This document shows positions 22,400 through 33,624 of a stretch of DNA of 64,000 nt, in pieces. The notes beneath the pieces were generated by a model. The model was not told where the DNA came from. It saw nothing but the letters and a program-made list of their open reading frames with translations, and searched no databases. The first letter of the stretch is position 1. The number at the start of each line of letters is the position of its first letter. Source of the stretch: Podarcis pityusensis. Lineage: Eukaryota. Location: assembly GCA_964106645.2 (NCBI GenBank), contig OZ067048.1; one strand, written 5' to 3'. The position numbers were made by a program, and so were the translations under genes.

Positions 22400-24480
22400 C
22401 AGTGATTATTGTCAGCAGCACGGAAGAAGAAAGAAGGCGAGGAGAGAAGGAGCTGCCGCGCGAGCGAGCGAGGAAGGCGCCAGGAGGAGAGCAAGCCGGA
22501 GAAGCAGGAGAAGGGGCTTTTATTTATTCGACCTACTTTGGATCTCTCGCTCGCCTTTCGGCTTTTCCCCTCCCCTCGGCGCGCGGCTGACATTCGCTCC
22601 GCTTCTGCTCTCTCCATGATCGCCTTTCGCTCCGCCACTTGGCTGGGGATCCTCGGTCTGCTGCGCCTGGGCGAAGTCGAGGGCGCTGCTGGGGTTTCTC
22701 CTTTGTATCTTCCCCAGCGAAATTGACGAGGGAGAGAGGCAGAGAGAAAGAGAGAAAGCGGCGCGCACGGAGAAAGAGAGACACAGCTAAAGAGAGAGGG
22801 AGCCCGGCGGCAAAGCAGCGGCGGCGGCCGGAGCCCAGAACAACGGCGGCGTCGGCGGCGAGAGACCCCCAAAGTGTCTCGTCCAGTCTCCTCTCGCGTC
22901 CTCCTCGGCGTCGTCGCCCTCGGGCTGGTCGGCGGAGCTTCCCGAAGCGCCTTTCCTGCATGGCTGACGCGCTGCCTCGGACTTGGCCCCCGGACACCCG
23001 CGCGCCCTGAGCGGCAGCCGCGCCTCGGCTCCCCGTGCGCCTTTGCCGGCCTCCCTGCGCGCCGACGGGCGCGATCCAGCGGCGGCTCTCCCGGCCGGGC
23101 CCCAGCGGCTTCGGCGGCGAGCAGTGGCGGCGACGGAGGCGGCCGCAGCCCCGGCAGAGAGACCAGCTTCTTCACCAGCAGCAGCGGCGGCGGCGGCAGC
23201 AGCAGCTTCGGCGGCGGCAGCAGCAGCAGCATCGCGCGGCTCCGGGCTCCTTCCTTGCTGCCGCTGCCTCTTTCGAGTCGACCGGCCGGGCGGGCGCGCC
23301 GCTAGCCCGCCGCGGACGGTGCGGGGCTGGCTGGCCAGGCAGGGTGTCCGGCGAGCCGGTCGCCTCCTCTTCCTCCCTTTCCTCCTCCTTCTCCTCCTCC
23401 TCCTGCTTCTTCCCCCCGTCGCCCTCTCTTCCCTCTCCTCCCCAGGGTCACCCTCCTGAATGCCTCTCCCGACAGCCCGCTTCGCCCTGGCTGCTTTTGC
23501 AACTTGAAAAGGGACACGTTTCTGGGGGGGAGGGAGGGAAGGGACTGAGAGAAGAAGCAGGAGGAGGAGGAGGAGGAAGAGAAGAAGAAGAGCGGGGGAC
23601 ACCATCCTGCTAGTCCCTTTGGAATTCCATTNNNNNNNNNNNNNNNNNNNNNNNNNNNNNNNNNNNNNNNNNNNNNNNNNNNNNNNNNNNNNNNNNNNNN
23701 NNNNNNNNNNNNNNNNNNNNNNNNNNNNNNNNNNNNNNNNNNNNNNNNNNNNNNNNNNNNNNNNNNNNAGAAGCAGAAAAAGATCGGCAGCGGGAGCAGC
23801 GGAGAGGCGGCGGCGGCAGCCACAGCAGCAACAGCCGCGGAGAGGCGGGAGGAGCCCCGATCCCTCGCCTCTGCCCCCCCCCCCGCGACAAACCCAGGCA
23901 GCCGCCCTTCTTTCCCCCCTTACCCTACCCCACCCCCTTACCCACCCGACCCCCCACCCCTCCTCCTCTCCCGGCCTCTTCTCCGGCAGCCCACCATCAC
24001 CACCAGGCACCCCCCCTCTTTTTTTTCCTCCGTGGGCCCGAGATATGGCAATGGTAGTTAGCAGCTGGCGAGATGCGCAAGAGGACGTGGCCGGGGGCGG
24101 CCCCACCGGAGCAGCTCAGCCGGGCCGGGACCCGCAGCAAGGGGCCTCGGCGGCCCCCCACACGCCGCAGACGCCCAGCCAGCCGGGCGCGCCGTCCACG
24201 CCGGGCGACAAGGGGCAGCAGCAGCAGGGATCGGGCCAGAGCCAGCAGCAGCAGCAGCACATCGAGTGCGTGGTTTGCGGCGACAAGTCCAGCGGCAAGC
24301 ACTATGGGCAGTTCACCTGCGAGGGCTGCAAAAGTTTCTTCAAGCGAAGCGTCCGCAGGAACTTAACGTACACTTGCCGGGCCAACCGGAACTGTCCCAT
24401 CGACCAGCACCACCGCAACCAGTGCCAGTACTGCCGCCTCAAGAAGTGCCTCAAAGTGGGCATGAGGCGGGAAGGTGAAT
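22400..24480. promoter_or_regulatory. CpG island covering the long GC-rich NR2F1 5' leader and exon 1
   Basis: Very high GC and CpG density with (GGC/AGC)n runs. Confidence 0.85.
24045..24474 (+). CDS. NR2F1: NR2F1 (COUP-TFI) coding exon 1: N-terminal A/B region and complete C4 zinc-finger DNA-binding domain
   Basis: ATG at 24045 gives [10 protein letters not shown]... then [69 protein letters not shown] (NR2F P-box CEGCKS). Ends GAA G|GTGAAT, a phase-1 donor at 24475. 430 nt. Confidence 0.98.
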
Positions 24481-26364
24481 ATTATTTCTTCCCTATTCGG
24501 ATCCGGATTGTTTGTGTGTGTGTCCAGGGCAGGTTGGGAGGAGGAGGAGGAGGGAGAGAAGGCTGGTACCCCCTCCCTCTCCTCCGAGCATCCCCCTCCC
24601 CACCAGACAAACAGACACACTTTCGCAACCACTACACTTGCTTCCTTTAGAGATGCGTAATGTTGCTATTACTCTTACTCTTACATTGAATGGTGTCTAT
24701 TCCTGGGTTGGGGGCTCTCTCCTTTCTTGGCTTGGAGCTGGTGGGGGCAGACAGAGAGAGGGAGAGAGAGACCCTTCTTTCAGTCTCCCTTTCCTCTCTT
24801 CATTATTTCGCCCCATTAGAAAGATGGGGGGGGGGAGAGAAAGCACAACAGTTCACGTTAGATCCTTCCCCCACCACAACCCTGGCCTCAAAGCTGAAAG
24901 AGACGTGTGTTGTGTGTAAGTTTGTTTGTTTGTTTTAAAATCATAATAATATATATTTTTAAAAACAAATTGGAGGGCCAATGGTGTTTAAATTGCTCTG
25001 TTTGTGTGGCTGCTTCCTTGCACCTTCGCTCTCTGCTAGGCGATCCCACCTAGCCAAATCCGGCCTTGTTTGGACTCCCTCGTGCTTTCAAAGGAAGTTT
25101 GTGAACGATCACTGCTTTTACAGTTCTGTCATTTCCCACCCCGTGTGCATGCTGCTTGTTTTATTTCTCCATCAGACGCCATCGTCGCTTTATACTGCAT
25201 CCCAATAATACTGGTTCTTATTAGTCTTATTATTTTTAAGCATAGCTTGCCTTTGGAATGTGGTGCTTATTTGAAAAGGAATACCTCCAGTGTTATGATG
25301 GTACTTTCTTTCTGTGTGTTTGTGTGTGTGTGTTAATTCCGAGAGAGAGATCTATATTTATATGAATGAAAGGAATAGTTATTATATGTATTTGTATGTG
25401 GGGAGGGTGTACGTGTGTGCTTGTGTATATATAGTAAGAGCGATTTACTGCGGCGGTGTTTTTGGTCTCCACACACATACTTGTATAGATATATACACAC
25501 ACACACTATTTAGCTGTTTGATGCTGAAAATTCAGCCTCGTGACCCTATTTAAAGAGGTCCTTAGGAGTCAAATGAGCCAAACACTTTCGGCAATGGAAA
25601 TGGCTTGAAAATAATAGAAAAAATAAAAAATAAAGCACATCTCTCCCGGGTGCCACAAGGAAAGAATGGAAATCCTTTTAAAACGGGCCACTGATGACTT
25701 CATTTAGGAGTTTCGGAGAGCTGTTGTCAGGATAGGGGTCTCGGGGAAAAATGTATATATCGAGAGCGAGGGGGAGCACAGGGATATATATGTATAGCAG
25801 CTAACAGCCCTCTCACAGCCTTTGAACTGTGTTTGCATTTAATTGAAACACAGAACTGCCAGGTTTGGAAGTATAATTTGCAGAGGGAGGAGGGAGGAAA
25901 GGGGGATTCTGACAGCTCGATGGGAATATTAGAATTTTTTTCCCCATCAAAAGTATGATTAACAACAGGAAACCCTGAAGAAAATAACTCTTCCTGTGAA
26001 ACAGAAAATATTAATTTTCTGCGCCTAAGAAATAACTCTCAGTTGTCCTCTCTTTGCTCTAAGTTACCTTTGTTTACATGCCAGGAGTGTGAATTGCTGA
26101 CCCAGATTAAGCAGACCCGGACACACACGCGCACACACACACAAACTTTGCTCAGCTTCGGAAACTCCAAGCATGCTGGCGTTTGGGGCTCGGGTGGTTA
26201 ATGAATTCCGTGAGTTTGTGTGCCCGGCGCGTCTCTTTTTGCACAGTTGCAAACGTGTGTTTTCACTGGCCAGATCGTGGGCATATATTTCCCACCCTCC
26301 TTTAATTTTCATTTTCATGCATCTGCAACCACGCAGAGAATTATTCGCCCTTCTCCCCACACTC

Positions 26365-26377
26365 ATGTTCGGCTTCC
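26365..26377 (+). CDS. NR2F1: Putative coding part of an intron-1 alternative first exon of NR2F1 (MFGF+P), giving a DBD-less isoform
   Basis: ATG TTC GGC TTC C|GTAAAT. The phase-1 donor matches exon 2 (C+CG=Pro, then VQRGR). Resembles, from memory, a mammalian short NR2F1 isoform starting MFGYSVQRGR. Confidence 0.6.
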
Positions 26378-27180
26378 GTAAATCGAAATCTTCATTTTGA
26401 CCTCCTTTTTAATAACAACAACAGCAGTCAAACCTTTCCTCCCCCCCCCTCCCCCCGTCCTCCTCCAGCCAGGGAGAAAGAACTCTGCTGCAAACAGGAG
26501 AGAAGCTTCCTCAGCTGAACCTGGGAACTGTTTAGGGAGAAGGCGCTTTAGGGGGTAGCTCTCCCACCCCTCACCTCACCTCACCCCACCCCACCCCCAC
26601 TCCAAGCACTTTTGCAAGCCTATTTGCTGAGTGGGACTCCGGACTGGCAAATAAAGCGGGGAGCCTGCGCGGGATGGCCTTTCCGGATTCCCAATCCTCG
26701 GAGCGCTAAATCGGCCGAGAGGTGACCAAGGATGGCTACCTGGCTATCAGGCAAGGCTAGGAGGGAGCAACTTGGAGGTGGGCCCTGACTTTGGAGAGTT
26801 CTTTCAGGGACTGCCTCATCATCATCATCATCATCATCATCACTATTTTCATCATTCCTCTTATTATTACTATTACTACAAAGAGAATGGCAGTCTTGTA
26901 AGGCAGTATACATGTCCCCATTTGCACAACAATGCAAGCTGAGGTGGGGGGGGACAGGCTTGCATTGTGCGTGTTTGCCACCCTCCCGGCCGGATTTGTG
27001 CGTGTCTGTGTGAGAGAAAGAGCCGACGCCTGTGTGTGTGTCTGTGCGCCTGTGTGCGCGCGTTGCTGTGGGAAGAAGGCTCCGCTTTGTTGCGCGGCGG
27101 CGGCTAGCGGGCTGGGTTTCGCCAAGGCTGCTGGATGCACATTTCCTCTCCTTTTCTCTCTCTCTCCCTCTTTTCGTCAG

Positions 27181-27881
<701 letters not shown>

Positions 27882-33273: not shown

Positions 33274-33624
<351 letters not shown>

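Follow-up and report, generated by a model that had tools for sequence, protein, structure and literature searches.

Organization of the NR2F1 locus

The window analysed here, a stretch of 64,000 nucleotides from Podarcis pityusensis, contains a vertebrate NR2F1 gene on the + strand (Table 1). Exons 1, 2 and 3 together encode the canonical protein of 412 amino acids, with translation starting from the ATG at position 24045. Exon 2 carries an internal ATG at 27198, with an A at position -3, from which a 263-aa form would be produced. The same exon-2-start form is annotated in mouse as 'isoform c' (P0027), and letter names of this kind mark curated records. The exon-2 variant MPPSQ of the lizard gene also occurs in the Anolis, Sceloporus, tegu and cobra proteins and in the tinamou model P0252.

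Five runs of N, of 132-206 bases each, are present in the window, one in exon 2 and four elsewhere. The run in exon 2 reads as a mask and not as an assembly gap, because the exon length yields the same 273 residues for a short isoform (see below) as the annotated model P0121. At the junction of exons 1 and 2, one Ala is absent from full-length models of shark, paddlefish and crocodile (P0249, P0342, P0350 and P0352); these model sequences suggest a tandem acceptor, which is absent from the lizard window. No annotated model for Podarcis pityusensis was found among the proteins that we fetched, and a metagenome scan with a 19-nt motif from exon 2 returned unrelated chance matches (15 of 15), with no BLAST hit to NR2F1.

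Table 1. Coding exons of NR2F1 and candidate features of intron 1 in the window
Feature	Position	Strand	Remarks
Coding part of canonical exon 1, with AF-1 and zinc-finger DBD	24045..24474	+	430 nt; phase-1 donor
Modest CpG-rich patch; candidate internal promoter or 5' portion of the alternative exon	26075..26374	+	GC 0.50, CpG o/e 0.80
Conserved block of alternative exon	26173..26377	+	Frame open from ATG 26173 to donor; use of this ATG would give a 337-aa form
CAG acceptor with pyrimidine tract, for use as an internal cassette	26224..26246	+	Exon start 26247
Cassette form, 131 nt	26247..26377	+	Frameshifts exon 1; TAA at 26303; would give a 162-aa DBD-only product or undergo NMD
Short-isoform start: conserved ATG, 13 coding nt	26365..26377	+	ATG TTC GGC TTC C; amniote match
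Alternative donor GTAAAT, phase 1, weak	26378..26383	+	Matches 5 of 9 consensus positions; lacks -1G and +5G
Second mini-exon of intron 1, with phase-1 donor	26732..26777	+	Predicts 284-aa DBD-less form
Exon 2 (hinge and LBD)	27181..27708	+	528 nt, 140-base N run inside
Exon 3, coding part (LBD end, stop)	33344..33624	+	281 nt

A short-isoform exon in intron 1

The initial annotation had drawn attention to an ATG in intron 1 that opens a very short coding stretch, ATG TTC GGC TTC C at 26365-26377, followed by GTAAAT and in phase with exon 2. We reproduced these coordinates, together with the arithmetic and the translation that follow from them: splicing would join 13+528+281 = 822 nt, encoding a predicted 273-aa protein with hinge and LBD and without zinc fingers. 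As in a DBD-less COUP-TF isoform, the zinc-finger DBD is missing and hinge and LBD are kept, according to the translation and to Pfam on the orthologous model P0121. The in-frame junction to exon 2 is present at the sequence level, and orthologous models carry it in five amniote lineages. The initial annotation had not mentioned two upstream in-frame ATGs (26173 and 26317), the acceptor at 26247, the internal-exon use in bird models, or the lack of G at both -1 and +5 of the donor. Depending on the start used, the predicted product has 337, 289, 273 or 263 residues, all four without the DBD.

The ATG at 26365 has a weak start context, while the ATG at 26173 and that in exon 2 each have an A at -3. 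We scored the donor against a nine-position consensus, which it matches poorly (Table 1), and donors that lack G at both -1 and +5 are uncommon. Judged by these signals, the weak donor and the weak ATG context count against strong use of the 26377 site in the lizard.

The arrangement of an ATG and a donor means little by itself, since intron 1 contains 41 candidates of equal form (an ATG whose frame stays open up to a phase-1 GT[AG] donor no more than 40 codons away), and the case for the exon at 26365 therefore rests on conservation. The amniote-derived pattern ATG-TTY-GGN-TWY-N-GT has one match on both strands of the window, at 26365; chance would give 0.016 matches in the whole window, and 0.0003 in intron 1 alone.

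We searched for the start peptide among 373 proteins, obtained from two protein searches (the best 120 of 933 and the best 120 of 177 matches) and three cluster look-ups. The sequence M[FY]G[YF][SPA]VQRGR, joined to exon 2, occurs in 16 of the 373 and never behind an intact DBD. Its carriers are guinea pig, dog and two mustelids among the mammals; the chicken/pigeon group, duck, eagle, owl and parrot among the birds; and gharial, crocodile, alligator, painted turtle and tegu among the reptiles. The MFGYSVQRGR model that the initial annotation had mentioned for mammals exists (Cavia XP_023417240, dog A0A8C0MYI8, Mustela XP_032191647 and also chicken isoform X3). From squamates to mammals the models keep the ATG, the phase and the junction peptide, as had been conjectured; the count of 16 in 373 proteins comes from gene models, not from reads. 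Such models may be carried over from one species to another by homology. Among the 373 proteins, which include the 15 of 144 members listed for the main cluster, the start motif occurs in no amphibian or fish model.

One 273-aa model, P0121, recurs in identical form across 85 contigs; for chicken and pigeon it bears the name isoform X3. It contains PF00104 and lacks PF00105, and its residues 30-271 match the LBD chain of NR2F2, 3cjw_A, with an E-value of 6.5e-157. The lizard form shares its length, domains, exon-2 junction and start-peptide class with the annotated amniote isoform (Gallus gallus and Patagioenas X3; Cavia XP_023417240; Salvator A0A8D0BL17), but differs by Tyr>Phe, also present in tegu, by Ser>Pro at the junction, and by a frame that stays open 64 codons further upstream.

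Sequence upstream of the conserved ATG

The roughly 550 bp preceding the ATG had been described as complex and motif-dense, and neither description held. The 5-mer complexity of 25790-26364 (575 nt) is 0.70, compared with a median of 0.69 for 104 N-free tiles, 48% of which are as high. Four of nine motif classes exceed the window average, in uncorrected counts: TATA-like motifs (2 versus 0.31, both TA repeats), FOX-like motifs (2 versus 0.24), homeodomain cores (8 versus 3.5) and nuclear receptor half-sites (2 versus 0.93). The other five classes are near or below average. The CpG-rich patch listed in Table 1 compares with CpG o/e values of 0.21-0.71 in other 300-nt intervals wholly inside intron 1, and of 0.86 in the interval that reaches into exon 2.

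We used the N-terminal extensions of the mustelid, crocodilian, turtle and tegu models as probes for the upstream DNA of the window. Of about 128,000 positions tested, 26173 came second and third with the mustelid and crocodilian N-termini. The middle segments of tegu and mustelid ranked 26237-26240 first, but in a shifted frame; the tegu segment scored 60 at 26237, versus 29. The expected site was not ranked first by the crocodilian and turtle middle segments or by the four short segments that end with the start motif, and it was missing from the top four for two of five acceptor-region segments from the crocodilian, turtle, mustelid and tegu models. Upstream of the ATG at 26365, homology can be followed back to about 26173 and no further; the exon extends beyond its 13 coding nt. 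The two blocks (26173 and 26237) lie in collinear order but are frame-shifted between lineages, which points to non-coding constraint from about 26173. All four groups of models have their start ahead of the acceptor-like site, as expected of a first exon.

Ahead of and through the conserved ATG, 92 codons (26101-26377) remain open in its frame, and the upstream ATG is in frame in the mustelid and crocodilian models as well, though the middle block is frameshifted in the lizard; this could be chance. A protein search with the 68-aa upstream frame of the lizard, a weak search, gave 10 candidates of which none scored, and no model with the lizard N-terminal extension was found by it.

Likely internal use of the exon

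Between 25700 and 26364, two YAG sites are preceded by at least 13 pyrimidines, and one of them is the acceptor of an exon starting at 26247. Four bird models (eagle twice, owl and parrot) begin in a shifted exon-1 frame and run on into the alternative exon, and the exon-1 junction that they imply coincides with this lizard acceptor, directly ahead of the second half of the conserved block. The exon thus has a usable upstream 3' splice site, as the four bird models indicate, and the route from exon 1 through it stops at 26303; it is therefore likely, on these sequence features, that the alternative exon is a hybrid first/internal exon.

By the NMD rule, a stop is recognized when more than about 50 nt separate it from a junction further downstream. 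The cassette stop at 26303 lies 72 nt before the cassette donor and 600 nt before the last junction, far enough for the lizard cassette to act as a poison exon. The implied cassette lengths are frameshifting in birds (116-119 nt, 4 of 4 models) and in the lizard (131 nt). In 6 of 6 models from the other lineages they are divisible by three and contain no stop: 108 nt in mustelid, 114 in crocodilians, 111 in turtle and 138 in tegu. The length landmark is itself deduced, and the sample is biased toward open frames, since these six could be seen only through an upstream frame without stops. Given the in-frame lengths in these lineages, poisoning is not shown to be conserved. No in-frame model combining the DBD with the cassette occurs among the 373 proteins.

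The hybrid exons described by Fiszbein et al. (PMC8769537) are likewise single exons that serve some transcripts as first exon and others as internal exon. They are reported to have strong splice sites, in contrast to the weak 26377 donor, and the case for dual use made here comes from gene models in several species rather than from junction reads in a single one. NR2F1 is absent from one supplement of that paper.

Other predicted DBD-less starts in intron 1

Of the 41 candidates in intron 1, the second mini-exon at 26732-26777 is the best match for the N-termini of the Anolis (P0128) and Sceloporus (P0133) short isoforms, with scores of 37 and 34 versus at most 1 for the next. Its donor has G at both -1 and +5. 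A further phase-1 donor, a full GTGAGT at 26209, would with the ATG at 26173 give a predicted 281-aa product, for which no model was seen; from their sequence and phase, this donor and the one at 26777 may compete with the donor at 26377. Additional DBD-less NR2F1 models with other first exons are annotated in turtles and some birds (P0003, P0122, P0123, P0125, P0126 and P0131), and ungapped scans of the window with the alternative N-termini of turtle, cuckoo and manakin gave no convincing site.

Comparison with NR2F2 isoforms

The nearest known parallel is found in the paralogue, where NR2F2-Iso2 (COUP-TFII V2, NM_001145155), Iso3 and Iso4 resemble the lizard form in having an alternative start, a short or no unique N-terminus, a shared hinge and LBD, and no DBD (PMC10073109 and PMC5785710, in the text available; P0150). 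NR2F2-Iso2 is made from an upstream start and enters the nucleus, according to the accessible parts of PMC10073109, PMC7016888 and PMC5785710. The first of these papers further reports that it co-precipitates with full-length Iso1 and raises or lowers the chromatin binding of the latter depending on context.

NR2F2-Iso2 has an upstream transcription start site and a 15-residue N-terminus, whereas the lizard exon lies in intron 1 and contributes five residues. We ruled out the lizard exon as a direct counterpart of the Iso2 first exon on the grounds of its intron-1 site and of the low scores of Iso2-type peptides, which nowhere on the + strand exceed 22 of 68-79. The two exons are, by sequence, likely of independent origin. 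The intron after the DBD is in phase 1 throughout the family (PMC8608329), which would make alternative starts easy to gain independently.

Discussion

The observation in the initial annotation is partly confirmed, and its interpretation is partly supported. We consider it somewhat probable that the exon ending at 26377 is an alternative first exon, and that the resulting protein of hinge and LBD modulates full-length NR2F1. The use of this exon somewhere in amniotes is highly probable, and its use in this lizard is probable. The transcription start would lie within intron 1, probably close to the CpG-rich patch (26.1-26.35 kb), and the transcript would be spliced onto exon 2. Translation might begin at 26365, at the upstream ATGs (26173 or 26317), or, by leaky scanning, at the ATG of exon 2. 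By analogy with NR2F2-Iso2, the short protein could pair through its LBD with full-length NR2F1, NR2F2 or RXR, or compete for cofactors, and would raise or lower receptor activity depending on context. A small fraction of the transcripts from exon 1 would likely take the exon through the 26247 acceptor, giving truncated or degraded products.

Modulation of the full-length receptor is thus likely, as far as the analogy with NR2F2-Iso2 carries. The initial annotation had spoken of a modulator or dominant-negative; the latter term is too narrow, as NR2F2-Iso2 both raised and lowered full-length binding (PMC10073109). Two reports count against the proposal: wild-type NR2F1 dimers were hard to detect by co-immunoprecipitation (PMC10955615), and one study states that in its human cells only ENST00000615873.1 was endogenously expressed, with bands of 44-46 kDa, the 44 kDa of a single isoform being a size that includes the DBD (PMC11982218).

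The exon could instead be mainly an internal poison cassette, by which splicing from exon 1 to 26247 would cause a frameshift, followed by degradation or a DBD-only fragment, and lower the NR2F1 dose. The four bird models that enter the exon from a shifted exon-1 frame, the lizard acceptor with its stop 600 nt ahead of the last junction, and the frameshifting lengths of 116-119 nt (birds) and 131 nt (lizard) fit this idea. We nevertheless regard it as improbable, because the mustelid, crocodilian, turtle and tegu lengths, on a deduced landmark, are multiples of three without a stop, and a poison cassette has no need for an ATG and four codons conserved at its donor. The frameshifting of upstream homology between lineages, a mark of non-coding constraint, is what an intronic regulatory element (an enhancer or an RNA-protein site) would show; transcription and splicing would then be incidental and of low level, the short protein negligible, and the models spread by annotation. 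The coding signal of only 13 nt and the weak donor and start context agree with such an element. So does the annotation of several further first exons without a DBD, each confined to certain lineages (Anolis, turtles and cuckoo are examples), which hints that the intron is permissive. It would not account for the retention together of the ATG, the F-G-aromatic codons and the donor phase in five amniote lineages, or for a start pattern that is unique in the window, and we hold this explanation to be rather unlikely.

Very unlikely, in our estimation, is that the exon functions in other amniotes and has weakened in the lizard, with the 26732-26777 exon or the 26209 donor supplying the DBD-less transcript. 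The donor strengths (no -1G and +5G at 26377, both at 26777, a full GTGAGT at 26209) and the Anolis and Sceloporus short models seen, which use the 26732-type exon, are in line with it, but the ATG, codons and GT are intact, the tegu model P0281 uses the same exon, and the weak donor may be ancestral.

Returning to the alternative first exon, its likely hybrid nature allows a further speculation. An amniote-old hybrid exon might serve as a two-way dose switch for the haploinsufficient NR2F1, supplying an LBD-only partner when used as first exon and, when used internally, removing or truncating the full-length message (birds, lizard) or inserting 36-46 residues between DBD and LBD (other lineages). 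We consider such a switch unlikely.

The initial annotation had further held that this isoform has had little study. Our literature searches, with most subscription journals outside their scope, found no functional study of a DBD-less NR2F1 isoform, and the statement stands to that extent; it does not stand for annotation, as the short isoform is already annotated across amniotes in the model sequences. The accessible text of PMC8715095 contains none of the terms 'isoform', 'splic' or 'exon', that of bioRxiv 2024.11.28.625692 does not contain 'NR2F', and term searches of the available parts of PMC11417824 and PMC12352279 gave nothing on a short NR2F1 isoform. Among the material listed in the supplements of PMC11014633, NR2F1 primers are given for ENST00000327111 only. 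Most NR2F1 isoforms are functionally uninvestigated, according to the available text of a 2025 paper (PMC11982218).

The DBD-less form of NR2F1 is a known kind of isoform, already in public annotation; what is new is the comparison across lineages, the likely dual use as first and internal exon, and the mini-exon at 26732-26777. NR2F1 is dosage-sensitive in human disease, as in BBSOAS (PMC10955615, available part). If kept across amniotes, the short isoform would escape mutations in the DBD exon and N-terminal antibodies, yet carry LBD variants, and could therefore bear on variant interpretation and on exon-1 knockouts.
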